From assembly GCA_021298155.1 (NCBI GenBank), contig JAJTEN010000015.1:832-64831 (forward strand): DNA of 64,000 bases, in the 5' to 3' direction. The first letter of the stretch is position 1. Each line of letters starts with the position of its first letter. Shown in pieces: positions 1,699 to 42,469 of this stretch. Below the pieces are notes generated by a model, which had not been told where the DNA came from, ran no database searches, and worked only from the letters and a program-made list of their open reading frames with translations. The position numbers and the translations under genes are program-made. Source of the stretch: Sphingobacteriales bacterium. GTDB lineage: Bacteria > Bacteroidota > Bacteroidia > UKL13-3.

Positions 1699-1701
1699 AG
1701 T

Positions 1702-2268: not shown

Positions 2269-2298
2269 TCATCGCTTGCAATTGTAAGCTCCAAACCT

Positions 2299-2306: not shown

Positions 2307-2322
2307 AACAAACGCTTTTGCC

Positions 2323-4023: not shown

Positions 4024-4112
4024 GTAACCCTACCATTCAAACCAAAAGATAACCGCTTCTCAAACCTTTTGCTTTTTTATGGGTTCTTTCTAAAGGATTC
4101 AAAATTACTTAT

Positions 4113-4120
4113 TAGCTTTG
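4113..4120 (+). promoter_or_regulatory. Candidate -7 promoter box (TAgcTTTG) upstream of the TonB-dependent receptor
   Basis: Exact match to the Bacteroidota TAnnTTTG consensus about 26 nt before the GTG start. Confidence 0.5.
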
Positions 4121-4146
4121 AACCGAATTTATCTATCAATTAACCT

Positions 4147-6522
4147 GTGAAAAAATTTATCCTTCTATTGGTATGGATTATTGCAATACCTAAAATCTAC
4201 GCCCAACAAAAATTCACTATCAGCGGAGAAATAACAGATGCAAAAAATGGGGAAGAGCTCATAGGCGCAAGTATTTCTGTTCCTCAACTCAAATCTGGAA
4301 CTACCACCAATGCATATGGATTTTACTCCATTACTTTACCTGCTGGAACCTACGAAATTGAGTTTTCTTATATTGGATACGATATTCAAAAGAAAACCAT
4401 TAACCTCAATAAAAATACGAGCCTAAACCTTGAGTTAAGTGAATCTAAGAAACAACTTAATGAGCTAATAGTAAAATCAGATAGGGTAAACAGCGACAAT
4501 GTTACGCAAAACAAAATGAGTGTCGTAAAAATTGACGTAAAACAGGTAAAGAAAATACCAATTCTATTGGGTGAAGTTGATATTATTAAAGCAATTCAAT
4601 TATTACCTGGCGTGCAAGCTGCCGGAGATGGGAGTACCAACTTTATTGTTCGAGGGGGAAATATAGACCATAACCTGGTTCAATTGGATGAGGCTGTTGT
4701 GTATAATCCATCCCACGTTTTAGGCTTTTTCTCTACTTTTAATGGAGATGCAATTAAAGATTTTGAAATATATAAAGGGGGTATTCCTGCTCAATTTGGT
4801 GGAAGATTGGCGAGCGTTTTAGATGTACACATGAAAGATGGAAACAACAAAAAGCTGGGCGTTTCTGGCGGTATTGGCTTACTTTCATCGCGTTTAACAG
4901 TTGAAGCCCCTATCATTAAAGATAAATCTTCTTTTTTAATCTCTGGCAGACGAAGCTATTTTGATGTTTTCTTCCCGCTTTCATCCCAATTAGATGGAGT
5001 TAAAGCGTTTTTTGGCGATTTAAACTTAAAGTTAAACTATACCCTAAACGATAAAAATAAACTATACCTATCTGGCTATTTCGGCCAAGATGTACTTGGC
5101 TTCTCTGGCTTTGCCGGATTTGGCTGGGGAAACAGCACCGGAACCTTGCGCTGGAACCACATTGTTAATAGTAAGCTATTTTTAAATACCAGTTTGGTGT
5201 ATAGCCGTTATGCCTATAATTTTGATATCAATATCAGTGAAAATCTAAACTTTACAAGAAGCAACTATATAGACGACTTAAATTTAAAAGTGGATGGAAG
5301 CTATTTTGTTTCAACCAAAAGCAGCTTTAAATTCGGTGTAAAACTAAATAACTTTGTTTTCCTGCCTGGGAGAATCGACCCAATCACCAAAAATTCAATT
5401 TTTACAACAGACTTATTACCCAAAAAACGGGCCATACAACAAGATGTGTATGCCACCCATGCCTATAAATTTGGTAGTAGGTTTAGTGCAGAATATGGAG
5501 CGCGTATTTCGGTATTTTCAAATATTGGTTCGGGAAGAAAAATTAATTATGTAAACGGTTCGCCAACCTTTTTAGATAATGGATTTGTAAAGGAGAGTCA
5601 AAAAGACCCTAACAACCCTTATACAAATTATAAAAGCGGAGAAATATATAATACCAATTTTGGTTTTGAACCAAGAATAAATCTAAGCTATTTAATCAAT
5701 GCCAGCAGCTCTATTAAAGCATCTTATAACAGAATGTTTCAATACATGCACCTTGTTCAAAACATTACCGCATCAACTGGACAAGAATTTTGGACGCCAA
5801 CAGATAATTATATAAAACCACAAATGGCTGATCAAATTGCCATCGGATATTTCAAAAATTTTAAGGAAAATACCATCGAATTTTCTGCCGAAGCTTATTA
5901 TAAAAAAATGAGCAATACCCTAGAGCTAAGAAATGGTGCAGATATTCAATTTAATGAAGCCATTGAGGGGCAAATTATTAGTGGACAAGGAAGGGCGTAT
6001 GGAGTAGAGTTGTTCTTAAGAAAACAAACGGGTAAAACTACAGGTTGGATTGCCTATACAATCTCCAAAAGCGAAAGACAGGCTGATAACGTAAATAATA
6101 ATCAATGGTACTCATTTAGATTCGATAGAACCCATTATTTGACTTTTGTGCTAAATCAACAAATTTCTGATCGCGTAAGCATTTCTGGAAACTTTATTTA
6201 TGCTACAGGAGAGGCCTTTACCCAAGCAAGCCAAAAGTATCAACTGTTTGGCAATACCCAACCTTCTATTTTTTATGGTGCAAGAAATAATGCACGCTTC
6301 CCTGCTTATCACCGGGCCGATATCTCCTTAACCCTGTCTCGAAAGAAAAAACCAGGAAAAACATATAAAAATGAAAGCGATTGGGTCTTCTCTTTATACA
6401 ATTTATATGGAAGAAAAAATGCCTTTACCCTTAGTTATGATACAACCAATAATGTACCCGTTATTTATAAATGGTACCTGTTTACTTTTGTGCCTTCTGT
6501 TACGTATAATTTCAAATTTTAA
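4147..6522 (+). CDS. TonB-dependent receptor with N-terminal CarboxypepD_reg-like domain
   Basis: 791 aa with a signal peptide. It has a carboxypeptidase-regulatory-like domain (FTISGEITDAKNGEELIGASI), a plug region and a long beta-barrel ending in ..VTYNFKF. GTG start. Confidence 0.85.
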   Translation: MKKFILLLVWIIAIPKIYAQQKFTISGEITDAKNGEELIGASISVPQLKSGTTTNAYGFYSITLPAGTYEIEFSYIGYDIQKKTINLNKNTSLNLELSESKKQLNELIVKSDRVNSDNVTQNKMSVVKIDVKQVKKIPILLGEVDIIKAIQLLPGVQAAGDGSTNFIVRGGNIDHNLVQLDEAVVYNPSHVLGFFSTFNGDAIKDFEIYKGGIPAQFGGRLASVLDVHMKDGNNKKLGVSGGIGLLSSRLTVEAPIIKDKSSFLISGRRSYFDVFFPLSSQLDGVKAFFGDLNLKLNYTLNDKNKLYLSGYFGQDVLGFSGFAGFGWGNSTGTLRWNHIVNSKLFLNTSLVYSRYAYNFDINISENLNFTRSNYIDDLNLKVDGSYFVSTKSSFKFGVKLNNFVFLPGRIDPITKNSIFTTDLLPKKRAIQQDVYATHAYKFGSRFSAEYGARISVFSNIGSGRKINYVNGSPTFLDNGFVKESQKDPNNPYTNYKSGEIYNTNFGFEPRINLSYLINASSSIKASYNRMFQYMHLVQNITASTGQEFWTPTDNYIKPQMADQIAIGYFKNFKENTIEFSAEAYYKKMSNTLELRNGADIQFNEAIEGQIISGQGRAYGVELFLRKQTGKTTGWIAYTISKSERQADNVNNNQWYSFRFDRTHYLTFVLNQQISDRVSISGNFIYATGEAFTQASQKYQLFGNTQPSIFYGARNNARFPAYHRADISLTLSRKKKPGKTYKNESDWVFSLYNLYGRKNAFTLSYDTTNNVPVIYKWYLFTFVPSVTYNFKF

Positions 6523-6539
6523 TCACCGGCTCTATTTCT

Positions 6540-7343
6540 ATGAAAAAAATAATTATCTATATCTTACCTCTGCTCCTCCTAATTGGAGCGTGTAAAGAGA
6601 TTGTTGAAATTGAAATAACAGATGCGGACCCCATTTTAGTGGTTGAAGGAGAAGTAAGCACTGAAACAGATAGTTCCTATGTAAAGCTAAGTCTAAGCAC
6701 CAATTATTACGCTGCCGGAGTGGCGCCAATAATTAAAACTGCTTCTGTTAGTGTAAATGGTATTCCTTTTTTATTTGATCCAAGCCAAAACCGGTACAAA
6801 CCCTTTGCTGGATTTGTAGGTAAAACCGATTCTGTTTACCAACTTAATGTAAATTACGAAAATAAAATTTATACTGCCCAAACTACACTCTATCCAATGT
6901 TCCGAGTAGATAGTTTTTTCCAAACCTGGAAGGAGGCTCAAGGATTTTTACCAGCAGGCTACTCGCTAAGTTACGCTGCATTTGATAGTAGACCAACGCC
7001 ACGCTACACTTCATTTATTCAGGGTTATTTTGATACCATTGCACAAAAAGATTCAATTCCAGGTAATACCATTGTATTCGATAATGTTCAAACGCCAGCT
7101 AACAAACAATATACGTTTGAAATCCCTTTCGCTCGTTTTATTTCTGGTGATATTTATTTCGCAACATTTAGATCAATAGACAATCAAATGAAAGATTTTT
7201 TAGCGGCGTATAGTAGTCAAAACCCAAATATTCCTGGTCCTTTTCAAGTGCCGCCAGCTAATCTTCCCACCAATGTATCTGGAGGTGCAGTGGGCTACTT
7301 CGTAGGCTATGATGTGAAAAGATTTAGATACACAGTTAAATAA
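6540..7343 (+). CDS. DUF4249-family lipoprotein (usual partner of CarboxypepD_reg-type TonB receptors)
   Basis: 267 aa with a signal peptide and lipobox (LLLIGAC). It lies directly downstream of the TonB receptor. The family assignment is from memory of this gene pair in Bacteroidota. Confidence 0.65.
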   Translation: MKKIIIYILPLLLLIGACKEIVEIEITDADPILVVEGEVSTETDSSYVKLSLSTNYYAAGVAPIIKTASVSVNGIPFLFDPSQNRYKPFAGFVGKTDSVYQLNVNYENKIYTAQTTLYPMFRVDSFFQTWKEAQGFLPAGYSLSYAAFDSRPTPRYTSFIQGYFDTIAQKDSIPGNTIVFDNVQTPANKQYTFEIPFARFISGDIYFATFRSIDNQMKDFLAAYSSQNPNIPGPFQVPPANLPTNVSGGAVGYFVGYDVKRFRYTVK

Positions 7344-7405
7344 AATACCCGAATACTTTAAGAAAATATTAGGACTGTTTTAAACGTTTTAATGCTACAT
7401 TCTTA

Positions 7406-7413
7406 TAGTTTTG
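7406..7413 (+). promoter_or_regulatory. Candidate -7 promoter box (TAgtTTTG), 4 nt before the ATG of the porin-like gene
   Basis: Exact TAnnTTTG match. The 4-nt spacer implies a leaderless or near-leaderless mRNA. Confidence 0.4.
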
Positions 7414-7417
7414 CGCT

Positions 7418-8098
7418 ATGCAAAGAGTTTTAACAAGCTTTATTTTATTCCTCACCATTGGTTCAAACCTGGCATTTGGGCAAAACGACAGTACACCTAA
7501 TGCTGAAGAAGAGGATGATTTGGTGTTTTGGTCAAAGCCATCATCTGATGAAAAATTTCGCTTAGGAATAAAAATGGGTATGCAAGTTTCTGGAATCTCT
7601 GGTACCGCCATTCCTGATCCAAGACCCATGTTCGGACTCTTAGGTGGAGGTTATGGACGAATAAATTTTAAACGGGGTTGGTCTCTTCAACAAGAAGTTC
7701 AAGTTTCATTTCGGGGGTCTAATTACCAAGCTGGAGCGGGGGGAATTAAATCACTGCGCCTACTCTATATCGATGCGCCCTTATTCTTAATGAAACAGAT
7801 TAAAAGAAATAGTCCACATAAAATAGGATTGGGAATGCAATACGGACATCTAATTAGTGCTGCGCTTTATATAGATGACAAGGCATACCCCACAGCAAAC
7901 GCGCCATCTCTTGATAAAAATGATTGGCTTCCAGCTGCTGCATACCAGTACCAATTAGACTATTTTGCCATTCAAGTGGCTGGAAAATATGGACTGCGAA
8001 ATATAAATTTAGGCTATCCTTGGCCTGAAAATGCAAAACCCCTAAATAATCAAGAGAAGCTGCATAACTTTGTGTTCGAAATAAATCTTATCTTTTAA
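7418..8098 (+). CDS. Outer-membrane beta-barrel (porin-family) protein
   Basis: 226 aa with a signal peptide (..NLAFGQ), alternating beta-strand-like pattern and a C-terminal aromatic residue (EINLIF). Confidence 0.55.
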   Translation: MQRVLTSFILFLTIGSNLAFGQNDSTPNAEEEDDLVFWSKPSSDEKFRLGIKMGMQVSGISGTAIPDPRPMFGLLGGGYGRINFKRGWSLQQEVQVSFRGSNYQAGAGGIKSLRLLYIDAPLFLMKQIKRNSPHKIGLGMQYGHLISAALYIDDKAYPTANAPSLDKNDWLPAAAYQYQLDYFAIQVAGKYGLRNINLGYPWPENAKPLNNQEKLHNFVFEINLIF

Positions 8099-8099
8099 T

Positions 8100-8906
8100 A
8101 TGTTTTTACGCAAGCAACTTATCTCGCAAATCCAACAAAAACAATCGTTTCTCTGTGTTGGGTTAGACCCAGATATTACCAAAATACCAAAGCATCTCCT
8201 GTCTGAACCAGATCCTATTTTTGCCTTCAATAAAGCAATTATAGATGCTACTGAGCAGTATTGCGTATCTTATAAGGTAAACTCCGCATTCTTTGAAGCC
8301 AGTGGGGCTAAAGGATGGGAAAGTATGCAGAAAACATTTGATTATATGCCCAAAGATTGCTTGGCAATTGCAGATGCCAAACGTGGTGATATTGGTAATA
8401 CAAGCGATCAGTACGCAAAAGCTTTTTTTGATACGCTTGGCGCCGATGCAATTACATTAGCACCATACATGGGCAACGATTCTATTCAACCTTTTTTTAG
8501 TTACCCAGGTAAATGGGGCATCGTACTTGCTCTAACCTCTAATATGGGTAGCGCAGATTATGAACAGCAAATGGTGGGTGACCAGTTTTTATATGAACGT
8601 GTTATTCAAAACACCTGCAAATTGGGCTCAGACCAAAATTTAATGTTTGTTGTAGGTGCTACCAAACCCAAAGAGTTTGAAATTATCAGACAACACGCGC
8701 CTAATCATTTTTTATTGGTACCAGGGGTAGGCGCACAAGGCGGTAGCTTGGAAGAGGTCGTTAAATATGGTAAAAACAAAGATATTGGTTTGCTCATTAA
8801 TGCCAGTAGAAGCATCATTTATGCAAGCAATACCAAAGATTTTGCAACAGCAGCAGCCTTAGAAGCGCAAAATTTACAGTTGCAAATGGCCGCGCTAATG
8901 GCTTAA
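8100..8906 (+). CDS. pyrF: Orotidine 5'-phosphate decarboxylase (type 2)
   Basis: 268 aa with the VGLDP and DAKRGDIGNT active-site motifs characteristic of PyrF. Confidence 0.9.
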   Translation: MFLRKQLISQIQQKQSFLCVGLDPDITKIPKHLLSEPDPIFAFNKAIIDATEQYCVSYKVNSAFFEASGAKGWESMQKTFDYMPKDCLAIADAKRGDIGNTSDQYAKAFFDTLGADAITLAPYMGNDSIQPFFSYPGKWGIVLALTSNMGSADYEQQMVGDQFLYERVIQNTCKLGSDQNLMFVVGATKPKEFEIIRQHAPNHFLLVPGVGAQGGSLEEVVKYGKNKDIGLLINASRSIIYASNTKDFATAAALEAQNLQLQMAALMA

Positions 8907-8918
8907 TTGCCTGGCAAT

Positions 8919-10196
8919 ATGTTTTGGCTTCACCTACTTATTCTGCTATCATTCATACTTATTGGCGCGCAATTAAAAGGTGTTGCCTTGGGATTTATGG
9001 GTGCATTGGGTACGCTCATTTTTGTGTATGTTTTTAATTTGCCTATAGGTAAAGCTCCAATAGATGTTATGCTGATTATCCTATGTGTTATCAGCGCAGC
9101 AGCTTCGCTTCAAGCCGCTGGAGGCCTCGCATACTTGGTAAGTATTGCCGAATTCATTATCAAAAAAAATCCAGCTGCTATTACTTTTATTGCTCCTTTT
9201 GTAACTTTTATTTTTACGCTTTTGGCCGGAACGGCCCATATTTGCTACTCCTTATTGCCCATTATTGCAGACGTTGCGGCGAAGAAAAAAATCAGACCAG
9301 AAAGACCATTAAGCATTTCTGTTGTTGCCGCAAATTTTGGTATCACTGCCAGCCCAATATCAGCTGCAACCGTTGCTATGTTTACAGAGCTAAACAAAAT
9401 ACCAAACAACACTTTTGGCATTGTTCAAATAATCAGCATTATCATGCCAGCCTCACTCATCGGTATTTTAGCTGGAGCTATTGTCGCCAATTTTATGGGA
9501 ACTAACTTAGATAAAGACGCGCAGTTTTTAAATAGTATGCCACAGGATGACTTCAAAGAAAAAGTCGTTCACTCTCCTCAGGCAAAATGGTCTGTATTTA
9601 TCTTTTTAAGCGGTGTATTAGGCGTTATCTTACTCGGCCTGAACCCAAACTTGCGCAAAACAAGTATGGTTGAATCAATTGAACTAATTATGCTAAGTGT
9701 GGTTCTTTTAAATGTAACTTTTGCTAAAATTAAGGCAACAGATATTGCCTCAACCGGAATATTCAAAACAGGCACAGAGGCCATCGTTAGCATATTTGGT
9801 GTGGTTTTAATGAGCAATACTTTTATCAATGCACACAGTACTTTTTTAAGTCAAAACTTGCAACCAATTGTAAGCAATCATGTTTGGCTGTTCGCTTTTG
9901 CCGTATTTATCATGGGTGCCTTGTTGTTTAGTCAAACCGCTACGGTAAAGGCAATAATGCCACTTGGCGCGCAACTAGGTATATTACCTGCTCATTTAAT
10001 TGCTATGTATCCAGCAGTAAATGCCGACTTTGTAATACCTAGCTATCCAACCCTCGTAGCTGCCATTAATTTCGATAAAACGGGCACTACAAGGGTTGGA
10101 AAGTTTTTATTAAATCATAGTTTTATGCTGCCTGGCATTACCCTAACATTTGTTACGATGTTGGCCGCGTATGGAATTATTTACTTCTTTTACTAA
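8919..10196 (+). CDS. Anaerobic C4-dicarboxylate transporter, DcuA/DcuB family
   Basis: ORF 8907..10196 begins with TTG. The ATG at 8919 gives the N-terminus MFWLHLLILLSFILIGAQLKGVALGF.., which aligns with the Dcu N-termini as I remember them. Polytopic membrane protein. Confidence 0.8.
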   Translation: MFWLHLLILLSFILIGAQLKGVALGFMGALGTLIFVYVFNLPIGKAPIDVMLIILCVISAAASLQAAGGLAYLVSIAEFIIKKNPAAITFIAPFVTFIFTLLAGTAHICYSLLPIIADVAAKKKIRPERPLSISVVAANFGITASPISAATVAMFTELNKIPNNTFGIVQIISIIMPASLIGILAGAIVANFMGTNLDKDAQFLNSMPQDDFKEKVVHSPQAKWSVFIFLSGVLGVILLGLNPNLRKTSMVESIELIMLSVVLLNVTFAKIKATDIASTGIFKTGTEAIVSIFGVVLMSNTFINAHSTFLSQNLQPIVSNHVWLFAFAVFIMGALLFSQTATVKAIMPLGAQLGILPAHLIAMYPAVNADFVIPSYPTLVAAINFDKTGTTRVGKFLLNHSFMLPGITLTFVTMLAAYGIIYFFY

Positions 10197-10232
10197 CAAC
10201 TTAATGCAGTGTAAAATCTGTTAATTTAAAAA

Positions 10233-11207
10233 TTACCATCCTAAAATCCAGGCAAAAATGAGCGGTGCTACAATAGTTGCATCACTTTCAACAATAAATT
10301 TAGGTGTTTGAATATCTAATTTACCCCAAGTAATCTTTTCATTTGGTACAGCACCACTGTAAGAGCCATAAGAAGTAGTAGAATCGCTTATCTGACAGAA
10401 ATAACTCCAAAATGGTATTTGCTCCATTTCCATATCTTGATATAACATTGGAACCACGCAAATTGGGAAATCACCCGCAATACCGCCTCCTATCTGAAAA
10501 AATCCAACTCCTTTACCAGCAGAATTTTGAATATACCAATCTGCTAACCAAGCCATATACTCAATTCCAGATTTCATTGTGCTAGCCTTTATTTCATTTT
10601 TTATTACGTAAGAAGCAAAAATATTTCCCATGGTAGAATCTTCCCAACCCGGAACTACAATAGGAAGATTTCGCTCTGCTGCCGCCAACATCCAAGAGTT
10701 TTTTGGATCTATTTCATAGTATTGTTCAAGTTCTCCGCTCATTAAAATTTTATACATGTATTCATGCGGAAAAAAGCGTTCTCCAGCGGTATCAGCATCT
10801 TTCCAAATTTTATAAATATGCTTTTGTAATCTTCTAAAAGCTTCTTCCTCAGGAATACAAGTATCAGTAACCCTATTGTAATGATTTTCTAATAAATCCC
10901 ATTCATCTTGAGGAGATAAATCTCGGTAATTTGGTACACGCTTATAATGTGAATGAGCCACCAAATTCATAATATCTTCCTCTAAATTTGCTCCAGTACA
11001 TGAGATAATATCTACTTTTCCTTGTCTTATCATTTCAGCTAATGATTTTCCTAACTCTGCTGTACTCATAGCACCTGCAAGGGTTACCATCATTTTACCA
11101 CCCTCAGTTAAATGGGTTTCATAACCTTTAGCTGCATCTACCAATGCAGCAGCATTAAAATGCTTGTAATGTGTCTCAATAAATTGAGAAATTGGTCCTT
11201 TATTCAT
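10233..11207 (-). CDS. Deoxyhypusine synthase family protein (bacterial DHS-like)
   Basis: 324 aa. DHS-like sequence throughout, including the C-terminal ..EKITWGKLD region with the conserved Lys. Confidence 0.8.
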   Translation of the reverse strand: MNKGPISQFIETHYKHFNAAALVDAAKGYETHLTEGGKMMVTLAGAMSTAELGKSLAEMIRQGKVDIISCTGANLEEDIMNLVAHSHYKRVPNYRDLSPQDEWDLLENHYNRVTDTCIPEEEAFRRLQKHIYKIWKDADTAGERFFPHEYMYKILMSGELEQYYEIDPKNSWMLAAAERNLPIVVPGWEDSTMGNIFASYVIKNEIKASTMKSGIEYMAWLADWYIQNSAGKGVGFFQIGGGIAGDFPICVVPMLYQDMEMEQIPFWSYFCQISDSTTSYGSYSGAVPNEKITWGKLDIQTPKFIVESDATIVAPLIFAWILGW

Positions 11208-11259
11208 TGTATAAATTGATTTATTCTATTTAATTTTTGTTGAAAAGTATAGGTAAATA

Positions 11260-12282
11260 CTAGCTTCCTAGTGATTCGAACTGATTTAAAAAACGTACAT
11301 CATTGGTAAAATAAGTACGCAAATCTTTTACTTCAAATTTTAGCATTGCAATGCGCTCAATACCCATTCCAAAGGCAAATCCACTATACTTTTCTGGATC
11401 AATACCGCTGGCTTGTAATACATTTGGATCTATCATTCCACAACCTAAAATTTCTAACCAACCCGTGTGTTTACAAACATTACAGCCACTACCCTTGCAC
11501 AACATACAACTGATGTCCATCTCAGCACTTGGCTCTGTAAATGGAAAATAACTAGGTCTGAACCTAAGGGAAACATCTTGTCCAAACAATGCCTGAATGA
11601 AATGATATAAAGTTTGTTTTAAATCTGCAAAACTTACTTTTTCATCAATGTAAATTCCTTCAATTTGATGAAAAAAACAATTGGCTCGCGCCGAAATAGC
11701 TTCATTTCTATAAACCCTACCAGGCATAATAGCGCGAATAGGAGGCTTTTGATTTTCCATTAAACGCACTTGTACCGATGATGTATGTGTTCTTAATGCA
11801 ATATCTTCACTAATAAAAAAAGTATCCTGCATGTCTCTAGCTGGATGATTGGGCGGAAAATTTAAAGCTGAAAAGTTATGCCAATCATCTTCTATTTCTG
11901 GACCTTCTGCATACACAAAACCCAAGGTTTTAAAAATCTCTATAATTTCATTTTCAATGATTTTTAATGGATGTCGCGATCCAATAAACTCCTTATCAGA
12001 CGGGAGTGTTAAGTCAATGTGCTCATTTTTTCCATGGTTCTTATTTGATTCAAATTGAGACTGAGCTTCTTCCCATTTTTGTTGTGCTTTTTGCTTAACC
12101 TGATTTAACAATGCCCCCACTTCACGCTTCATTTCAGAAGGTACAGTTTTAAACTCTTCAAAAAATTGATTTAAAGTACCTTTTTTGGATAAAAACTTTA
12201 AACGGAAATTTTCTACTTGCTCCAATTGTTTTATTTCAAACAATTCAATTTGTATCTTTAATTCCTCTAATTGTTTTTTCAT
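11260..12282 (-). CDS. pheS: Phenylalanine--tRNA ligase alpha subunit
   Basis: Class II aaRS motifs (FRPSYFPFTEPS, GFAFGMGIERIAM). The ORF track starts at TTG 12303. The ATG at 12282 (MKKQLEEL..) is the likelier start. Confidence 0.92.
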   Translation of the reverse strand: MKKQLEELKIQIELFEIKQLEQVENFRLKFLSKKGTLNQFFEEFKTVPSEMKREVGALLNQVKQKAQQKWEEAQSQFESNKNHGKNEHIDLTLPSDKEFIGSRHPLKIIENEIIEIFKTLGFVYAEGPEIEDDWHNFSALNFPPNHPARDMQDTFFISEDIALRTHTSSVQVRLMENQKPPIRAIMPGRVYRNEAISARANCFFHQIEGIYIDEKVSFADLKQTLYHFIQALFGQDVSLRFRPSYFPFTEPSAEMDISCMLCKGSGCNVCKHTGWLEILGCGMIDPNVLQASGIDPEKYSGFAFGMGIERIAMLKFEVKDLRTYFTNDVRFLNQFESLGS

Positions 12283-12300
12283 ATCATTTAATTTTCGAAC

Positions 12301-12308
12301 CAAAGGTA
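12301..12308 (-). promoter_or_regulatory. Candidate -7 promoter box (TAccTTTG) for pheS
   Basis: The + strand reads CAAAGGTA. The box sits 18 nt upstream of the preferred ATG at 12282. Confidence 0.45.
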
Positions 12309-12727
12309 ATTCATCCTACACTATCCTTCCAAAAGTTTTCAACCCACATATACTATTCTTCTTTAATATACTTTTATATCTATTCTTTTTATAGAGATGT
12401 GAATATGGTGGAGAACCTATTTTCACATCCATTGATTTTTTAGTTATTAAATTAACTTAACATTTTAGTAACTGTTTAGTTATTTAATAATCAATTCTTT
12501 ATTCTTTTTATCCATAGCTGTGTATAGTGTATTTCACAGTTAATTGGGGATAATTAATTTTATTCAATTTGTGTATCTAAAGTGTATAAAGTCGCACTAA
12601 ACCTCTGCTTGTTCACAATGCGACATTTCTAAAAAGTTACCTACAGCAGAAAATTCACTTATTCACTAGTTTATTCACACTTTTGGGAATTTGTCGCATT
12701 TAGTAATAGTATATATATTATTGATTA
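12309..12727. other. ORF-free AT-rich region with clustered DnaA-box-like / TTCAC(A/T) repeats: candidate oriC or operator array
   Basis: No ORF of 60 aa or more lies wholly within this gap; one 69-aa + strand ORF (12185..12394) that starts antisense inside pheS runs into its left edge and looks spurious. I count seven TTCAC(A/T) copies and three 8/9 matches to TTATCCACA. Two TTTAGTTATT(A/T)AAT repeats lie between the box clusters. See findings. Confidence 0.35.
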
Positions 12728-14326
12728 TTAATTATTTATAATATTATCAATAGAGATACTTTGTTCAATGTCCCAATACGCTTTTATTGAAATCACTGTT
12801 TTATCGTAATAAATAGGCTCTGGCTGTATTTTCTGAGAATAATTACCTGTATCCCAAACCCCATTATTATTAATATCTTCAATTACTTTGAATTGATAAT
12901 TTCCAGGTTTAAGATAACGAATTTGTGTTTCTTTGGGTAATGGATATTTCCAGGTTTGTATCACTAATTCATCATTAGCCTGCGATTCTATAAGCTGTAA
13001 AATGATTTTTTGATTGGTATTAGCGTTAATATTTAACAACATTGTTCCATATTCTTTTTCGCTTTTATTGATAAATGAATTAGTTGTTTTAACGTTATAT
13101 CTGCTAAAAATATCTAGTAATGCACTATCCTTTATCGTAATAGTATACGGTTTAGTTTCCTTGTATGGATAATACATTACCCATTCAAATGGAGATATTT
13201 CTTTAAAGTAACTGAGTGTTATTTGTGTAGTATCTTCTAAAATTTCAATTCGAGATTTATCTATATTTACTATTGGAGTATTACTGATTAATCGTATACT
13301 GTCTGTTGGTTTATCTGGTATAATAATAGATGCTTGAAAGGGTATTAGTTTACTTTTAGCCTTCGTTCTTAAACGCACTGTATAAACTGAGTCTATAGTT
13401 TTTATTTCAAATGCTTCTGCAGATGTATCTATACTTTGCGGAACAAAAACGTGTATGGTATCGATATTATTTTTACCAGTGTTTAGCTTCTGATAACTGG
13501 CTTTATGTTTTAGCGACTTAATATCAATATGTGTTGGATTATATACCACAAATTGATAAACATGCTTTTGTTTACTTAGTGTATCTAATAACGTATTTGG
13601 TTTATGAAGTGGATTTTTAAATAATGTTAGCTTAATAGAATCTGATAGTATACTCGGTATTATTTGCTCTGCATAAAATGCTATTTCTTCTATTTTTTGA
13701 TACTTATTATCAGCATTTGCATCTTTAAATGCGATGAGATAAAAGGTATCTGCAGGTAAATTATATATACTAAATCTACCCTGTTCATTACTCTTTGTTA
13801 AATAATCTGGATATTTTTTAAAGATAGTTGTATCTGTAAATGAATTCGTTTTATACAAAGCGATCAAAATCTCTTTTTCTTCTTTGGTACTTTGTGCATT
13901 ATATATTTTGCCTTTTATTGAATTTGAATCCAAATAGTTACCGGTAGAGAAAACATAAGAATAATTGTTAAGTGCATTTCCCTCGTTTACATCTACAATA
14001 GCATTAGCAAAGTTAATTGTATAGGTGGTATTTATTTCTGGATAACCCTTTAAGAATGCAATAGAAATTTGTTTTCCCGTACTTTCAATTTTCGGTTTAT
14101 CCTTTAAAAACGGAGATATAATAATTTGCCCTGGATCCTTGATACTTATATATTCATCAAATTTTAAAATTATTTCTTTGCTTTTAAAGTTAACTGATTT
14201 ATTATCAGGGTTATGTAATAAAATCTTAGGTGGTTTTTCATCTTTACTACCGCCGCTTGGAACAACTTGTTGGGCACACGAAATGAATAGAACACTAATT
14301 AAATAAAAGTAGCCTATTTTCTGCAT
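12728..14326 (-). CDS. Ig-like domain-containing lipoprotein (SbsA/Big_5-like N-terminus)
   Basis: 532 aa with a signal peptide and lipobox (LFISCAQQ). The N-terminal PPKILLHNPDNKSVNF.. region is typical of Ig-like lipoproteins in Bacteroidota. Function is unknown. Confidence 0.55.
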   Translation of the reverse strand: MQKIGYFYLISVLFISCAQQVVPSGGSKDEKPPKILLHNPDNKSVNFKSKEIILKFDEYISIKDPGQIIISPFLKDKPKIESTGKQISIAFLKGYPEINTTYTINFANAIVDVNEGNALNNYSYVFSTGNYLDSNSIKGKIYNAQSTKEEKEILIALYKTNSFTDTTIFKKYPDYLTKSNEQGRFSIYNLPADTFYLIAFKDANADNKYQKIEEIAFYAEQIIPSILSDSIKLTLFKNPLHKPNTLLDTLSKQKHVYQFVVYNPTHIDIKSLKHKASYQKLNTGKNNIDTIHVFVPQSIDTSAEAFEIKTIDSVYTVRLRTKAKSKLIPFQASIIIPDKPTDSIRLISNTPIVNIDKSRIEILEDTTQITLSYFKEISPFEWVMYYPYKETKPYTITIKDSALLDIFSRYNVKTTNSFINKSEKEYGTMLLNINANTNQKIILQLIESQANDELVIQTWKYPLPKETQIRYLKPGNYQFKVIEDINNNGVWDTGNYSQKIQPEPIYYDKTVISIKAYWDIEQSISIDNIINN

Positions 14327-14327
14327 C

Positions 14328-15221
14328 TTATTTATGTTTTATTACAAACAATATACTTGAGTAATTACCTGTAAAATAAGCTTTTATGTTCGAATAAAGC
14401 CCTTTAATAGCCCCCTTTATAAATCCCATATTATTTTTTTGATGGTATTCACTTCGCATAGAGATATAAGGTGCATCAAAAGGCATTGATTGTTGTTCTA
14501 TTATCTCAAAGCCATAATTATTCATTAATAAACGCATACTATTGGCTGTAAAATGATACAAATGACGTGGAACATCATACCCATCCCAAAACTGCTTGTA
14601 ATGCTTTGCATCAAACGAATTTGATATAGGCACAGCAATAAACATAGTACCATCTTCCTTTAAAATCCGTTTCAGGAGTTTCATTCTTTCATCTAATAAA
14701 TGTACATGTTCCATAACGTGCCACTGGGTAATGATGTCGTAAAACCCATCTTCAGTTATATTTAGTTTATCTTCTTTTAGCACTTGTAAAGCAAATTCTT
14801 GTTGCACATAATTTACCGCTTCATCCGAAACATCCGCACCTGTTGCATCAAAAGTTTGATCCAATTTTACACCATTTAAAAAATAACCCAAGCCACAACC
14901 TAAGTCTAATAGTTTCCCGCTTGTATGGTATTTTTTTATTAGTTTAAGTTTACTTCCAATACTATAGTTTCTAACCCAATCATAAATTTTATAGGTTACA
15001 CCAAGCTCAGATTTATTGCTACCAGCATGTGATATATAATTTTTTGAATTATAATATTTGCCTATTTCGCTCATATCTGGCCTAGGGTTGGTAAATTGTA
15101 AACCACAGTTGCCGCAAGCAACGACCATGAAATTTTCTCCACTAGCCACATAATCTGTGCAAGCAAATAAATCTGAAAACTGGTTTGAATTACAAACCGG
15201 ACATTGTTCTAGTTTTTCCAC
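14328..15221 (-). CDS. Class I SAM-dependent methyltransferase with N-terminal zinc-ribbon
   Basis: 297 aa with two Cys pairs (CPVCNS ... CGNCG) and SAM-binding motif I (LLDLGCGLGYF). Confidence 0.75.
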   Translation of the reverse strand: MEKLEQCPVCNSNQFSDLFACTDYVASGENFMVVACGNCGLQFTNPRPDMSEIGKYYNSKNYISHAGSNKSELGVTYKIYDWVRNYSIGSKLKLIKKYHTSGKLLDLGCGLGYFLNGVKLDQTFDATGADVSDEAVNYVQQEFALQVLKEDKLNITEDGFYDIITQWHVMEHVHLLDERMKLLKRILKEDGTMFIAVPISNSFDAKHYKQFWDGYDVPRHLYHFTANSMRLLMNNYGFEIIEQQSMPFDAPYISMRSEYHQKNNMGFIKGAIKGLYSNIKAYFTGNYSSILFVIKHK

Positions 15222-15238
15222 GCAACAAAATAAAGTAA

Positions 15239-17104
15239 TTATCTGCCCAAATGCACCATTAATATTGAAACATCTGAAGGAGATATTCCGCTAATTCGTG
15301 CTGCTTGTCCAATTGTTTTTGGTCTTTGTTTATTTAGCTTTTCTCTAGCCTCTAATGAAATTGATTTAATGCTTAAAAAATCAAAATCGTCTTTTATCTT
15401 AAAATCTTCTAACCTATTCATTTTGTCTACAAGCAATTTTTCTTTTTCTAAATATCCTGAATATTTCATTAAAACCTCTGCTTGTATCAAAGCATCTTTA
15501 GAATATTCAGCCAAAAAGGCTTTTACGCTATCCAGCTTATCAATCATTAATGGTAAGTCAATTTGAGGCCTACTCAGTATTTGCGTTAGTTTATAATTCT
15601 GTGGTATGGCCGTTGTTCCGAGCTCCGCTAACATTGGATTTACTTCGCTTGGACTAATGGATGTCTTGGTAAAATAATTGATTATCTCATTGGTCTGTTT
15701 CACTTTCTCTTCCACATCTTTTAATCTTTGATCTGAGGCTAAGCCCAATTCATGAGATTTCTTGGTAAGTCTGATATCTGCATTATCTTGTCTAAGCATA
15801 AGCCTATACTCAGCCCTTGAGGTAAACATTCTATAGGGTTCATCTGTACCTTTGTTCACTAAGTCGTCTATTAGTACGCCAATGTAGGCTTCAGATCTTC
15901 CCAATATGAATGCATCTTTTTCATTAATTTTTTGATGCGCATTTATGCCAGCCATTAATCCTTGGCATGCTGCTTCTTCGTATCCTGTTGTACCGTTAAT
16001 TTGTCCTGCAAAATATAGGTTTTCAATTAATTGTGTCTCTAAACTAAGTTTTAATTGGGTGGGTGGAAAGTAATCATATTCTATGGCATAGCCTGGTCTA
16101 AATATTTTGGCCTTCTCAAACCCTGGAATTAATTGAATGGCTTTATATTGAATATGATCTGGCAGTGAAGTAGAAAAGCCATTAACATAAATTTCAACCG
16201 TATTCCAACCTTCTGGCTCAACAAAAATTTGATGCCTGTTGCGTTCTGCAAATCTATTTATCTTGTCTTCTATAGAGGGGCAATACCTTGGGCCTAATCC
16301 TTGTATTCTTCCGGCGTACATTGGTGAGTCTTCAAAGCCAGTTTTGAGCACCTCATGAACCTCTTCATTTGTATACGTTATCCAGCAACAGCGTTGGTTC
16401 TTAATAGCTGTGGTTTCAGCGCTGTACGAAAACTTTTCAGGCTGTTCATCACCTGCCTGTTCTTCCATTTTAGAGTAGTCTAAGCTTCTACCGTCTACGC
16501 GTGGTGGTGTGCCTGTTTTCATTCTGCCCGACTCAAAACCTAATCTGACTAAGCTTTCTGTTATCCCAAATGATGCTTTTTCTCCAATTCTTCCACCACC
16601 AAATTGCTTTTGTCCGATATGAATAATCCCGTTCAGAAATGTTCCACTGGTTAACACAAGTGACTTACATCTTATTTCTTGACCCATTCCTGTTACCACT
16701 GCACAAACGCTATTGTCTTTGGTTTTAATATCTACAACCATGTCTTGCCAAAAATCAACATTAGGCGTTTGTTCCAAATACTCGCGCCAATACTGACTAA
16801 ATAACATTCTATCGTTTTGTGTTCGCGGACTCCACATAGCAGGTCCCTTTGACCTGTTCAACATCCTAAATTGAATGGTTGACCTATCTGATACAAGTCC
16901 GGAATAACCACCTATTGCATCGATTTCTCTTACAATTTGTCCCTTTGCAATGCCTCCCATCGCTGGATTACAGCTCATTTGTGCAATTTTATTCATATCC
17001 ATGGTTATAAGTAAAACCCTGGATCCTAAGTTAGCTGCCGCCGCAGCAGCTTCACATCCTGCATGTCCGGCACCAACCACTATTACATCATATTCTATAA
17101 ACAT
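15239..17104 (-). CDS. mnmG: tRNA uridine-5-carboxymethylaminomethyl(34) synthesis enzyme MnmG (GidA)
   Basis: FAD-binding N-terminus YDVIVVGAGHAGCEAA and full-length MnmG similarity. The start is moved to the internal ATG at 17104 (MFIEYD..), which removes the overlap with ybeY. Confidence 0.95.
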   Translation of the reverse strand: MFIEYDVIVVGAGHAGCEAAAAAANLGSRVLLITMDMNKIAQMSCNPAMGGIAKGQIVREIDAIGGYSGLVSDRSTIQFRMLNRSKGPAMWSPRTQNDRMLFSQYWREYLEQTPNVDFWQDMVVDIKTKDNSVCAVVTGMGQEIRCKSLVLTSGTFLNGIIHIGQKQFGGGRIGEKASFGITESLVRLGFESGRMKTGTPPRVDGRSLDYSKMEEQAGDEQPEKFSYSAETTAIKNQRCCWITYTNEEVHEVLKTGFEDSPMYAGRIQGLGPRYCPSIEDKINRFAERNRHQIFVEPEGWNTVEIYVNGFSTSLPDHIQYKAIQLIPGFEKAKIFRPGYAIEYDYFPPTQLKLSLETQLIENLYFAGQINGTTGYEEAACQGLMAGINAHQKINEKDAFILGRSEAYIGVLIDDLVNKGTDEPYRMFTSRAEYRLMLRQDNADIRLTKKSHELGLASDQRLKDVEEKVKQTNEIINYFTKTSISPSEVNPMLAELGTTAIPQNYKLTQILSRPQIDLPLMIDKLDSVKAFLAEYSKDALIQAEVLMKYSGYLEKEKLLVDKMNRLEDFKIKDDFDFLSIKSISLEAREKLNKQRPKTIGQAARISGISPSDVSILMVHLGR

Positions 17105-17129
17105 TTTCTTTTCTTTATTACCTAAGTTC

Positions 17130-17570
17130 TTAATTATGTTGAGATTCTGAATCCGTTTCACGTGAAACTTGGATTGTATCCCAAAGCATTAAAGCTAAGT
17201 CCTCTGCTTCACGCATTTCTTTTATTTCTTTTTTTGTCTTGTCTTTGAACCCGATCAAGTGTAATAAGCCATGAGCAATAACTCGCCTCAGTTCAACTTC
17301 AAATATACAATTATTTGTTTTGGCATTGTCTTTTACTCTGTCTATGCTAATATAAATATCACCCTCTATTACACTTTTAGTATCACTTAATTCGAAGGTT
17401 ATGATGTCTGTATAATAGTTATGTTTTAGATAATGTATATTTATTTCTAAAAGCTCTTCATCAGTGCAAAAAGTATAGTTCAAATTATCTATATTTTTTC
17501 TGTAATGAGAAGCTATGGCTTTTAGCCAGGGTTTCATTCTGACTCTGTCAATTCTGGGTCTCCTACCCAT
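17130..17570 (-). CDS. ybeY: rRNA maturation RNase YbeY
   Basis: Metal-binding motif HGLLHLIGFKD. The start is moved to ATG 17570, giving about 146 aa, the typical YbeY length. Confidence 0.85.
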   Translation of the reverse strand: MGRRPRIDRVRMKPWLKAIASHYRKNIDNLNYTFCTDEELLEINIHYLKHNYYTDIITFELSDTKSVIEGDIYISIDRVKDNAKTNNCIFEVELRRVIAHGLLHLIGFKDKTKKEIKEMREAEDLALMLWDTIQVSRETDSESQHN

Positions 17571-17586
17571 ATTGCAGAAGTATATA

Positions 17587-19311
17587 TTATCTGATAACTG
17601 TAATGCTCCCATGAATGTCTATTATTTCTTGCCCTACTTTTACTTTTGCCATAAAGAAGTATACACCTGTACTAACTTCGTTTCCACTATTATTCGTGGC
17701 ATTCCAGCCTGCTTCAATGTTGTCTTTCTGATATTCAATTTGACCCCATCTATTATAAATACTTATACTGCTATTTTGTAGATCTAAACCTTCTCCTACA
17801 AAACTAAACACCCTGTTTATACCATTAGGCATAATGGCATTTGGATAAAACACCTTACCCGATTTAACATAACATGAAGTATTGCTTTTGCTATACAAGG
17901 TTCCTGAATTATCATGCGCTTCGATATAAAAGCAATTAGCGGCAAATGCACCCCTGTCTAGCACAATTGATGTGTCTGTTAGTGGTAGTCCCTCTGCCGT
18001 GAAATTAACGGCGTCTATTACATTATTAGCTGATGCTCTGAATATTGTGTAGTCTTTGACCCCCGTGTTCCACGTGAAATACGAATTCCAATTTAAGTTA
18101 ATCTTATCATTCTCACCTAGCAAATCCAGAACAATATTATTTGAAAATTGGCTAGAGTCGCTTATCATACCACACATGTTTTTACTTAAAATATAGTAAT
18201 TGTATTTTAGCTTGTTGTTGGCAAATACATCTGTGTAGAGCGTTTCATTTCCTGTAAATGTGTATATGCTTTCATTTAGTCCGTTTATATCAATCCTTCT
18301 GAGCTCAATAGATAAATAATTGGCAACTGGGTTTTTTACAATTTCAATACTTAATTTTTCATTTTGGTTATTTGTAACTTGTTTTATTTTTGTGTTTGTT
18401 GGACTAACAGATTTTCCGCTAGTAAAGCTTGGGCTCATATTACTACTAGAAGAAATCTTTACGCTATTTAGTTTTCTAGCCCTAACAAAGTATTCTACAT
18501 TTGCACCCAATTGAGTAATATTTTCCTCATAAAACAATTGATTTCCTGGAAGAATAGCTACCCACTCAAAGGCCAATCCATTAATACTTCTAAAAACGTG
18601 ATATTCTTCAACTGCCCACCCTACGTAGGCATTCCAGGTTAATGAGATGGTATTAATACAGGTGTCAATTTTACCTTTTAAACAAATTGTTTTATGTTGG
18701 TATGCCCCATATTCTTTTCTATTATCACAACTGTCAGAACTCGTAATATCGTAACTTAATGATTTGGTTTTTGGATTAATGGGTGAAAGATCTATGTAAA
18801 ATGTGTCTCGGTAATTTTCTATTAATCTTGGGTCGGCCCTATCATAATTATACAAATAATACGTATTAAAATCTGGCGTTTTGTTGGATGTCCAGCCCAA
18901 TAAAACTACATTATTTATTGGATCAACGCTTACAGAATCTAGTGTTGTTGAGTCGGGTTTTTGATCATCTATTTGAAGGGTATCTGAGTAAAAAGTTGTA
19001 GTATCAATTCCACATATTTTGGTGTATTCGAAATAATAGTGCCAATCTTTTACACTAGGCACATTTGCATTGGTGTGTGTGTAAGTTCCAGCAATTGGGT
19101 TGATATTACCATTAACTAAATAGTATGCTTGTGCTACGCTCTCTTTGGCGTATAATTTTGCATTACCAATAATGGTGCAGGTATTGGGCTGTATTTGCCA
19201 TGTTAATTGGTTATTATTTCCGCCATTGCACACTCTTTTTAGCACTATATTTTGTGCGAATAGTGTTATGCAGCTGCATATTAAAATAATTCCAATTATT
19301 GTTTTTTTCAT
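17587..19311 (-). CDS. Secreted repeat protein with T9SS type-B C-terminal sorting domain (gliding-motility-associated CTD)
   Basis: 574 aa with a signal peptide. The C-terminus ..FYPNAIMPNGINRVFSF...IYNRWGQIEY...GWNATN...GVYFFMAKV...GSITVIR matches the type-B CTD pattern. Its ATG overlaps the upstream gene's stop (ATGA). Confidence 0.8.
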   Translation of the reverse strand: MKKTIIGIILICSCITLFAQNIVLKRVCNGGNNNQLTWQIQPNTCTIIGNAKLYAKESVAQAYYLVNGNINPIAGTYTHTNANVPSVKDWHYYFEYTKICGIDTTTFYSDTLQIDDQKPDSTTLDSVSVDPINNVVLLGWTSNKTPDFNTYYLYNYDRADPRLIENYRDTFYIDLSPINPKTKSLSYDITSSDSCDNRKEYGAYQHKTICLKGKIDTCINTISLTWNAYVGWAVEEYHVFRSINGLAFEWVAILPGNQLFYEENITQLGANVEYFVRARKLNSVKISSSSNMSPSFTSGKSVSPTNTKIKQVTNNQNEKLSIEIVKNPVANYLSIELRRIDINGLNESIYTFTGNETLYTDVFANNKLKYNYYILSKNMCGMISDSSQFSNNIVLDLLGENDKINLNWNSYFTWNTGVKDYTIFRASANNVIDAVNFTAEGLPLTDTSIVLDRGAFAANCFYIEAHDNSGTLYSKSNTSCYVKSGKVFYPNAIMPNGINRVFSFVGEGLDLQNSSISIYNRWGQIEYQKDNIEAGWNATNNSGNEVSTGVYFFMAKVKVGQEIIDIHGSITVIR

Positions 19312-20588
19312 TTTTTACCTACAACAACCTCAACGATGTTTTCTGTATCAAAGTATTTTACAGCTAATTCTTGTAATTCTTTTGAACTAGTGCTATTTAA
19401 AATGGAAACAAATTCTGGGTAATAGGTGTCTGCTAAGGTATTATCTATGATAATTTTTAGTCGGTCTGCCAAGCTAAATGGGCCATCCAAACTTTTCAGG
19501 AAAGAACCTAAATAGTAATTTTTAGCTGTTTCTAATTCACTTTGAGGGATTGGGTCAGATTGAATTTTTTTGATTTCATTGTATATTTCTGTAATGCCTT
19601 CAGTTCTGTTTTTGGTATTAATATCAGTATCTATATACCAACTAGCACCATGTAAATTGGGTTCTAATACCGAGTAAATTCCATAGGTTAAACCCTTGTC
19701 TTCTCTAATATTTTTCATTAAACGGCTACCAAAGTATCCGCCAAAAATTAGGTTTAAAAATTGTAGTTTTCTAAAATCAACATGGTTTCTACCAATGCTT
19801 ATTTTGCCTATTCTTAAAGCAGATTGCACCGAGTCGCTTTTCTCAATAAAATGTTGGCCAGGAGTTGATTGAATAGTGAAATGGCCTGTTGCATTAACCT
19901 GTCTTTCAAACACACTTGCTTTGATTTCTTGAGCTATTATATGAATGCTATTTTCTTTAAATTGGCCAGACACCATCACATATTTTAAGCCGCGCATATA
20001 ATTGCTTTCGTAAAAGCTAATGAGCTTATCTTTGCTTAACTGTTGGATATCTTCTTTGCTCCCAAATGCCGCGTATGGATGTTGTTCACCGTATATTTTT
20101 TGGTAATAATTTTTCTTACACAAATAGCTGTTTTTCTTTTCATTCACGAGTAATTTAGATAAGCTATTTTTCTTTTGAATATCTAGCTCTTTTTCTGGGA
20201 AAACAGATTGAGTTAGTGCTTCCATAAAAATGGGAAGGCAATTGCTCAAATGTTTTTCTAAACAATATAAAGTGGCAACTGCATCATCTGCATTAGCCCG
20301 TGTTTGGAAATAAGAACCATAGTAATCTAATGCTTCAGCTAATGCTAGCGCGCTTTTTGTTTGCGTGCCCTCACTTAACATGCTTGAAGTGAAACTGGCT
20401 TGTGCTGTTTGCAGTTGGTGAATTAGTCCGGCTTCAAAAATAAAGTCTAAACGTATTACAGCCTGGGTACCCGCTTTTAAAGCATACAAAAACAATTGAT
20501 TTTTAATTTCAATTTTCTGATATTCAGGAAATGACAGCTTTTCAATGGTATGAAAAGCCGGTATAGTTTTACGGTTTAAATCAATCAT
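19308..20588 (-). CDS. M16 (pitrilysin/insulinase) family protein, non-catalytic subunit type (no HxxEH)
   Basis: M16-like fold sequence lacking the zinc motif. The likely start is the internal ATG at 20588 (MIDLNRK..), which gives a 4-nt overlap with the upstream gene. Confidence 0.75.
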   Translation of the reverse strand: MIDLNRKTIPAFHTIEKLSFPEYQKIEIKNQLFLYALKAGTQAVIRLDFIFEAGLIHQLQTAQASFTSSMLSEGTQTKSALALAEALDYYGSYFQTRANADDAVATLYCLEKHLSNCLPIFMEALTQSVFPEKELDIQKKNSLSKLLVNEKKNSYLCKKNYYQKIYGEQHPYAAFGSKEDIQQLSKDKLISFYESNYMRGLKYVMVSGQFKENSIHIIAQEIKASVFERQVNATGHFTIQSTPGQHFIEKSDSVQSALRIGKISIGRNHVDFRKLQFLNLIFGGYFGSRLMKNIREDKGLTYGIYSVLEPNLHGASWYIDTDINTKNRTEGITEIYNEIKKIQSDPIPQSELETAKNYYLGSFLKSLDGPFSLADRLKIIIDNTLADTYYPEFVSILNSTSSKELQELAVKYFDTENIVEVVVGKK

Positions 20589-42453: not shown

Positions 42454-42469
42454 TTTTATCTTGTGCCAC

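Follow-up and report, generated by a model that had tools for sequence, protein, structure and literature searches.

A DnaA-box-rich gap between pheS and a Big_5 gene is the probable chromosomal replication origin of an uncultured Bacteroidota bacterium

The DNA analysed here (the window) is a stretch of 64,000 nucleotides of contig JAJTEN010000015.1 from an uncultured Bacteroidota bacterium, and our subject is a non-coding gap within it that separates pheS from a gene for a Big_5-domain protein, in the neighbourhood of mnmG (also known as gidA). Here we propose that this gap is probably the chromosomal replication origin (oriC) of the bacterium. An original prediction, made from the letters alone, had suggested an origin at this position near mnmG, and the idea is supported by a switch in strand composition, an excess of DnaA-box-like motifs and conservation of the locus among relatives. 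To our knowledge, no origin of Bacteroidota has been dissected experimentally, and a literature search for experimentally studied Bacteroidota origins, or for DnaA-trios in the phylum, found none.

A non-coding gap rich in DnaA-box-like motifs

The window encodes proteins typical of Bacteroidota, including TonB-dependent receptors with CarboxypepD_reg domains and the type IX secretion proteins CHU_C and PorP/SprF, and its replicon carries the housekeeping genes pheS, metG, mutL, gatA and icd. The nearest species-representative genome in GTDB release 232 is a metagenome-assembled genome with 90% PheS identity, and metagenome assemblies at ENA, JGI and NCBI contain the same species several times over, examples being ERZ27247984, ERZ28594514 and JGI 3300032234; a PheS search of metagenome contigs gave, among the matches listed, relatives of at most 66% identity and none from the clade. 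All genes from 10233 to 22997 lie on the − strand. Read leftward from 22997, they encode a dicarboxylate symporter, two M16 peptidases and a CHU_C protein, followed by ybeY, mnmG, the methyltransferase and Big_5 genes, the gap, pheS and a deoxyhypusine-synthase-like gene (Table 1). The gap is the sole non-coding stretch of more than 100 bp between 10.2 and 23 kb; ybeY and mnmG overlap, leaving zero non-coding DNA at ~17.1 kb.

As originally described, the gap is the longest part of the window free of open reading frames (ORFs), given that the longer gaps between large ORFs all hold ORFs of 62-136 aa. Its right end, 12727, is also where the prediction had put it, next to the Big_5 stop codon (12728), but the left end had to be moved. 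The pheS start is most likely ATG 12282 and not TTG 12303, as the former gives the exact protein recorded in public assemblies, and the non-coding stretch is therefore 12283-12727, of which ~60 bp at the pheS end are the pheS promoter. The predicted distance of 2.5 kb to mnmG and the lack of dnaA and dnaN both hold: a scan of all ORFs of at least 150 aa in the 64 kb found no dnaA, dnaN or parAB. A SIS-domain protein (1702-2268) was considered as DiaA and rejected, because it is GmhA.

Table 1. Genes and sequence features at the pheS–Big_5 locus, in window coordinates
Feature	Position	Strand	Remarks
pheS	11260..12282	−	Pfam tRNA-synt_2d and Phe_tRNA-synt_N; transcription directed away from gap
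Probable pheS promoter, Bacteroidota type	12301..12333	−	−7 box TACCTTTG 12308..12301; −33 TTTG 12333..12330
Candidate oriC core	12346..12727		Box arrays, three AT-rich low-stability blocks, TGCGACA repeats
AT-rich block b, preferred unwinding-element candidate	12346..12397		Between double box and pheS promoter
Tandem double box	12398..12415	−	TTCTCCACC (12415..12407), then ATATTCACA (12406..12398)
Box ATTTTCACA	12419..12427	+	Convergent with double box; inverted repeat GATGTGAATAT / ATTTTCACATC
Central AT-rich block	12430..12505		TTTAGTTATT(A/T)AAT direct repeats, TGTTAA motifs; lies between box clusters
Box group, part 1	12508..12553		TTATCCATA 12508 (+), CTATACACA 12519 (−)
Box group, part 2	12508..12553		TATTTCACA 12530 (+), TTATCCCCA 12545 (−)
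Boxes AGATACACA and TTATACACT	12570..12589	−	12578..12570 and 12589..12581
TGCGAC copy 3	12591..12597	−	GTGCGAC
Box TTGTTCACA	12609..12625	+	Box at 12609-12617; abuts TGCGACA copy 2
TGCGACA copy 2	12619..12625	+	
Three same-orientation boxes	12651..12679	+	AAATTCACT 12651, TTATTCACT 12659, TTATTCACA 12671
TGCGACA copy 1	12692..12698	−	AAATGCGACAAATTCCC
AT-rich block a, alternative unwinding-element candidate	12700..12750		Overlaps Big_5 stop codon
Big_5-domain protein, 532 aa	12728..14326	−	Transcribed toward gap
S-adenosylmethionine (SAM) methyltransferase	14328..15221	−	Transcribed toward gap
mnmG/gidA	15239..17161	−	Transcribed toward gap; 2.5 kb from gap, two genes between

The gap holds the densest cluster of DnaA-box-like sites in the window. 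All seven TTCAC(A/T) copies of the original prediction are present, six on the + strand at 12422, 12533, 12612, 12654, 12662 and 12674 (the last formerly read as 12675) and one as TGTGAA at 12398. Dinucleotide shuffles contain 0.68 ± 0.8 copies, in agreement with the earlier estimate of fewer than one, and none of 1,000 reaches seven. The window averages 1.03 copies per kb, no other 424-bp segment of it has more than three, and its other intergenic regions hold 0-1 each, so that the density comparison once suggested as a check leaves the gap far above the rest. Because the sites vary mainly at the fifth base, TTWTNCACA is a fitting consensus; allowing up to one mismatch, it occurs 10 times in the gap and 1.9 ± 1.4 times in shuffles (0 of 1,000 as high). 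The three predicted 8/9 matches to the DnaA box (12508, 12545 and 12671) and the 7/9 matches at 12609, 12659 and 12398 were likewise recovered, TTATTCACA at 12671 being the only exact TTWTNCACA match of the gap. Three of the sites lie within one mismatch of TTATCCACA, and the Ori-Finder default for a cluster is at least three such sites in an intergenic region. In the same-orientation trio of boxes at 12651, 12659 and 12671, the start-to-start spacings are 8 and 12 bp.

Duplex stability is also exceptional here, with the 40-mers that rank 1, 3 and 9 for lowest stability in the 64 kb lying in the gap or at its edge. The least stable of all, 12706-12746, has −34.4 kcal/mol against a mean of −50.8; 12354-12394 ranks third, within a block that comes after two tandem same-orientation boxes, and 12431-12471, in the central block, is among the nine least stable. 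Both near-identical TTTAGTTATT(A/T)AAT repeats noted originally are found in the central block, as 14-mers at 12439-12452 and 12475-12488. At the pheS end, direct reading of the sequence places a −7 box and a −33 TTTG 21 nt apart, and the Bacteroides promoter consensus is TAnnTTTG/TTTG. A sigma-70 promoter scan gave fewer matches than shuffles, with a scan model that does not cover Bacteroidota promoters.

Two other places in the window carry box-like sites. An rluB-like pseudouridine synthase gene is preceded by a 186-bp intergenic region (29695-29880) in which the window's single exact TTATCCACA occurs (29739, −), together with a copy of TTATTCACA (29788, +) and a third relaxed box; this could be a DnaA-regulated promoter or a product of chance. 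A 480-bp gap at 48925-49404 (37% GC) contains only a 62-aa ORF, five relaxed DnaA-box matches and no Rfam match.

Strand composition and conservation in related species

Strand composition was measured as the GC skew at third codon positions (GC3 skew) of each gene, read on the + strand, because the minimum of the raw cumulative GC skew, at ~22-23 kb, sits where the gene strand flips. An origin at 22-23 kb was rejected, as GC3 skew is already positive in the − strand genes of the 17-23 kb interval. To the left of the gap lie ten genes (16 to 12303; eight on the + strand, two on the −), nine of which have GC3 skews of −0.13 to −0.46 and the tenth +0.01. Ten further genes beyond the left end of the window, taken from a conspecific contig (L174), are all negative (pooled −0.30); eight lie on the − strand, where transcription runs the same way as a fork moving out from the gap. 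To the right, the genes from 17130 to 63832 are positive in nearly all cases, mostly at +0.1 to +0.36; these include twelve on the − strand, the sign being independent of gene strand. Leading strands are generally G-rich, and a change from negative to positive is therefore the one expected at an origin. Such a strand-compositional switch is present at the locus, within 5 kb of the gap in the window, and its direction matches the one obtained by hand counts in the original prediction.

We then compared the locus with that of 12 other species at 61-91% PheS identity (L001-L004, L038 and L167-L173), all of which keep the order mnmG, methyltransferase, Big_5, gap, pheS. The maximum-likelihood breakpoint of the skew falls exactly at the Big_5/pheS gap in nine of the 12 (L001, L002, L003, L167, L168, L169, L171, L172 and L173), and the log-likelihood gain at the gap is 33-51 in the loci of 19-21 kb (L001, L167-L169 and L171-L173). 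For L170, the gap scores no more than 1 log-likelihood unit below the best breakpoint, and in L004 and L038 the skew is too weak to judge. In assembly GCA_002256395.1 of the clade, the homologous gap is at ~1,119,234-1,119,666 of contig NKJG01000001.1 (1.39 Mb), and in GCA_027488765.1 it is expected at ~36.8-37.3 kb of contig JAIYBA010000021.1.

Some relatives have non-coding DNA that is missing from the window. In L170, an extra 443 bp lies between ybeY and mnmG (4714-5156), and the skew breakpoint of this locus is ambiguous between that stretch and the pheS gap; in L173, ~1 kb (3646-4653) separates the CHU_C gene from ybeY. We also observed that the third codon positions of mnmG hold more G than C on the coding strand in every genome examined; this gene-specific excess shifts skew breakpoints by one gene and calls for caution in fine-scale origin mapping.

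The gap itself is conserved, as had been proposed for the motif array: an alignment of 12 gaps shows that the gap, the box positions and the AT-rich blocks are kept down to ~69% PheS identity. The best-conserved box pair, TTTTCCACC-ATATTCACA, is recognisable in 12 of the 12 aligned gaps, in all of which the ACA of box AGATACACA (alignment columns A166, C167 and A168) is also invariant. The promoter box TACCTTTG is kept in 11, the TATCCCCA of the box group at 12508..12553 is kept in five, and box ATTTTCACA is not kept in the closest relative, L001. The central block (...GTTA(A/C)TAAAATGTTAAGTAA...TAATAACTAAAAAATCAA) is well conserved. Relative to shuffles, boxes are strongly enriched in the window, L001/L168 and L170 and moderately in L003, L004 and L171, with significance for the core motif in L003 and L004; on these counts the window genome is the one with the most canonical box array of its clade. 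Among 75 other Bacteroidota pheS loci, by comparison, most upstream gaps are short and all but a dozen are without boxes. Trinucleotides that resemble DnaA-trios, [CT]T[AT], follow the double box after 0-3 nt, three to four in a row, in L167, L170, L002 and L171, where the background probability of at least three consecutive trios is 0.02. A CTA-TTA-CTA run beside TGCGACA copy 1 was rejected as DnaA-trios, being not conserved and of the wrong polarity to the nearest box.

Within the species, strains L163, L165 and L166 share single-nucleotide polymorphisms (SNPs) at 12518, 12523 and 12528 around box CTATACACA (12519-12527). The SNP at 12523 hits the degenerate fifth position and the specific bases are spared, an anecdotal observation at 0-8 SNPs per 445 bp; across strains L161-L166, the SNPs are too few for measuring constraint on the gap.

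The strongest conserved motif was missed in the original prediction, although the motifs that it did list are present. TGCGAC is the most over-represented hexamer of the gaps, with 25 occurrences against 0.3 expected, and outranks the box; there are 5.1 copies per kb of gap and 0.15 per kb in 257 kb of flanks, a 35-fold difference. Its extended consensus, A-N-TGCGAC-ATTT, is an 11-12-bp near-palindrome (AATG-CGA-CATT) in which the A at position −2 is invariant in 27 of 27 sites, and it occurs in 2-5 copies per gap in the window, L001-L004, L167-L170, L172 and L173. The hexamer is kept at the copy-1 position in ten of the 12 aligned gaps. In the window as in L168 and L173, copies 1, 2 and 3 lie 30, 104 and 132 nt past the Big_5 stop. 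The copies of L167 are displaced by 15 nt but keep the intervals of 74 and 28 nt, which are thus common to the four closest species. TGCGACA clusters are found almost only in the pheS/Big_5 gap across 2.5 Mb of Bacteroidota loci. One further cluster upstream of pheS, in Chryseolinea sp. OZ245870.1 (L078), was rejected as an unrelated tandem repeat with a ~120-bp unit; at 9540-9960 of that locus lie 3-4 tandem ~120-bp units (…GTCATAGCAAAAATATC…TTTTTGCGACGATGCACTAG). In the literature, a search for TGCGACA turned up nothing beyond chance matches in lists of primers. TGCGAC is missing in L171 and L038, and because L171 nevertheless has a strong skew switch at the gap, the element appears to be accessory and not essential. 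All TGCGACA copies have one orientation in L002 and L004 and thus cannot pair, so the element is not an RNA stem.

Origin function and alternative explanations

The gap is very probably an ordinary DnaA-box-type origin with one extra conserved motif. In the mechanism that we propose, DnaA would bind ~10-13 degenerate boxes (core T-N-CACA) in two clusters, a right one at 12508-12679 and a left one at 12398-12427 that consists of the tandem TTCTCCACC-ATATTCACA and one convergent box. A DnaA oligomer would then open an adjacent AT-rich element, most likely 12346-12397 next to the tandem pair, with the central block (12430-12505) or the highly unstable 12700-12750 as alternative opening sites, and forks would depart in both directions. 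The pheS promoter adjoins the preferred unwinding element and would direct transcription out of the origin, much as gidA is transcribed next to the unwinding element of E. coli; it might aid opening through negative supercoiling. The three copies of A-N-TGCGAC-ATTT are probably bound by a putative accessory protein. The lack of a nearby dnaA had been counted against an origin, an objection that is removed by the published finding that a large distance between oriC and dnaA is common in Bacteroidetes (PMC4755523).

Several observations weigh against placing the origin in the gap. The best breakpoint of the window itself is the ybeY/mnmG junction at ~17.1 kb (log-likelihood gain 36.5, against 29.7 at the gap), because Big_5 (−0.04), the methyltransferase (−0.18) and mnmG (−0.10) are weakly negative; this breakpoint lies 4.4 kb to the right of the gap, so the window alone places the origin in 12.3-17.1 kb. 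The 10 kb to the right of the gap are transcribed head-on toward it, as the original prediction had pointed out (the genes at 12.7-23 kb are on the − strand), the left genes at 0-10 kb are also transcribed toward it, and the gene-strand bias to the right is weak overall. The boxes are degenerate, with no exact TTATCCACA in the gap, and trios are weak here, only one following the double box in the window, L168 and L001. In L167, L169, L172, L173 and L038, relaxed boxes are no more numerous than in shuffles, and TTAACA often stands in place of TTCACA. Finally, a gidA-linked DnaA-box cluster that is not an origin has a precedent: Pseudomonas aeruginosa oriCII is reported to be a gidA-adjacent DnaA-box cluster that regulates transcription (PMC13438810).

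That precedent, together with the 4.4-kb offset of the window's own breakpoint and the position of the boxes directly upstream of the pheS promoter, would fit a DnaA-binding regulatory or titration site, like oriCII or Escherichia coli datA/DARS, that acts on pheS, on neighbouring transcription or on DnaA activity, with the active origin at another site a few kb away or farther. We consider this unlikely, as the skew switches at the gap in nine of 12 relatives, another origin would be needed and yet 12.3-17.1 kb has no other non-coding DNA, the pheS upstream regions elsewhere in the phylum are without such arrays, and AT-rich low-stability blocks flank the boxes. The degeneracy of the boxes also suits an operator array for one or more non-DnaA factors that regulate pheS or the upstream operon, an alternative already raised in the original prediction, in which the skew switch would be a coincidence. 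The candidate binders would be a response regulator that recognises TTCACA/TGTTAA, the TGTTAA direct repeats of the central block being 11 bp apart and presumably similar to OmpR/ArcA-type sites, or a protein that recognises A-N-TGCGAC-ATTT, whose core hexamer is enriched more than any other and exceeds its density in the flanks 35-fold. However, the promoter at the pheS end has a very short leader and 380 bp is unusually long for an operator; TGCGAC is absent from L171 and L038, the first of which still has a strong skew switch; and the switch at the gap in nine species is left unexplained. The short, box-free gaps upstream of pheS in most of the 75 other loci, which lack the array, further disfavour an operator, which we regard as quite unlikely.

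A transcript from the gap, such as a T-box-like leader or attenuator of pheS, a Big_5 3′ untranslated region or terminator, or a small RNA, is very improbable. The pheS-sense strand does fold better than shuffles (z = −2.7), and the inverted repeat AATGCGACA/TGTCGCATT could form a stem, but the RNAalifold consensus is only −0.55 kcal/mol, the gap has no Rfam match at the gathering score or at E ≤ 1, and the one-orientation TGCGACA copies of L002 and L004 are unable to pair. Moreover, the conserved promoter lies ~20 nt from the pheS ATG, so the leader is only ~12-20 nt and there is no room for a long one; neither a Phe-rich leader peptide (short ORF) nor, in a terminator scan, a terminator-like hairpin was found in the gap. 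Rfam and tRNA scans of the whole window were both empty. Local transcription, with + strand genes at 0-10 kb and − strand genes at 12.7-23 kb, converges as it might at a replication terminus (dif region), but farther left eight of ten genes run with an outgoing fork, the gap contains a DnaA-box cluster, and the skew runs from negative to positive, opposite to a terminus. With no 28-mer reaching 68% identity to the dif of E. coli or Bacillus subtilis, skew polarity and the lack of a dif-like site exclude a terminus, the least credible of these explanations. An iteron-type plasmid origin was rejected, given the housekeeping flanks, the lack of a rep-like gene and the lack of meaningful plasmid similarity; a BLAST comparison of the gap with plasmids found no significant similarity over more than 18% of the gap.

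Elsewhere in the window, an ORF at 42425-43099 combines a Schlafen/AlbA_2 domain with a TrmB-type helix-turn-helix and encodes a putative DNA-binding regulator; it is followed by two ORFs without a Pfam match. An apparent gap between larger ORFs contains a gene for a 101-aa protein with an RNA-recognition motif (RRM_1; 34414-34719).

Comparison with known origins and implications

The closest parallels to the candidate origin are in the same phylum. In two Flavobacteriaceae, Algorimicrobium bowmanii KMM 8389 (PMC12843772) and Mariniflexile litorale (PMC11278836), Ori-Finder, for which gidA is a default indicator gene, places oriC next to mnmG in agreement with GC skew. Like the gap, these origins are intergenic DnaA-box clusters that are linked to mnmG, lie at the GC-skew switch and are not next to dnaA; unlike them, the gap adjoins pheS and is separated from mnmG by the methyltransferase and Big_5 genes. 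They are, as is the gap, predictions, and the likeness concerns position and general features. E. coli oriC (gidA-oriC-mioC) is likewise compact, at a few hundred bp, with numerous DnaA boxes that vary in quality and an AT-rich unwinding element (a candidate one in the gap); it too has gidA/mnmG in the vicinity and, beside its AT-rich end, a promoter that fires away. In E. coli, however, gidA adjoins oriC and is transcribed away from it, whereas the mnmG of the window lies at a distance of 2.5 kb and points toward the gap. Moreover, the gap is without 13-mer L/M/R repeats and without exact TTATCCACA, its AT-rich DNA lies between and beside two box clusters and not at one end, and its lack of GATC sites (0) implies no SeqA-type sequestration, unlike in E. 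coli.

The basal unwinding system of the B. subtilis origin was reportedly worked out by Richardson et al. in 2016 and Pelliciari et al. in 2021. This system comprises two DnaA boxes, DnaA-trios and an AT-rich region (PMC10225481). The tandem TTCTCCACC-ATATTCACA, with CTA/TTA trinucleotides within a few nt and an AT-rich low-stability stretch, resembles it, and so do the 3-4 consecutive trios after the double box in four relatives, their polarity being judged against the B. subtilis sequence; in contrast, the window has one trio and no GC-rich spacer, and its candidate origin is not split by dnaA. Short repeated elements beside DnaA boxes and AT-rich DNA, here 11-12 bp long, are also a trait of iteron origins and of chromosome 2 of Vibrio cholerae (oriC2, with RctB 12-mers). 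The gap, however, adjoins neither a rep- nor an rctB-like gene, and L171 and L038, which have the locus, lack the repeats. With P. aeruginosa oriCII, the likeness lies in a DnaA-box cluster in the gidA neighbourhood and upstream of a promoter; the active origin there is close by, next to dnaA, whereas the skew-switch interval of the window contains neither dnaA nor an alternative non-coding region.

We tentatively suggest that the TGCGAC element may be the origin-specific site of a putative second initiator or of a protein that controls timing or sequestration, with RctB, CtrA or SeqA as analogues, a possibility that we put forward with some doubt. If true, initiation control in this lineage would depart from a pure DnaA paradigm. 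The TGCGACA element could be used as a DNA-affinity bait for origin-associated proteins of the phylum, for example as AATGCGACATTT. For a lineage that is known from metagenomes only, the placement of the probable origin anchors replichore structure, peak-to-trough growth estimates and strand-bias analyses, and it adds a well-supported comparative case for Bacteroidota origins that lie near mnmG rather than dnaA.

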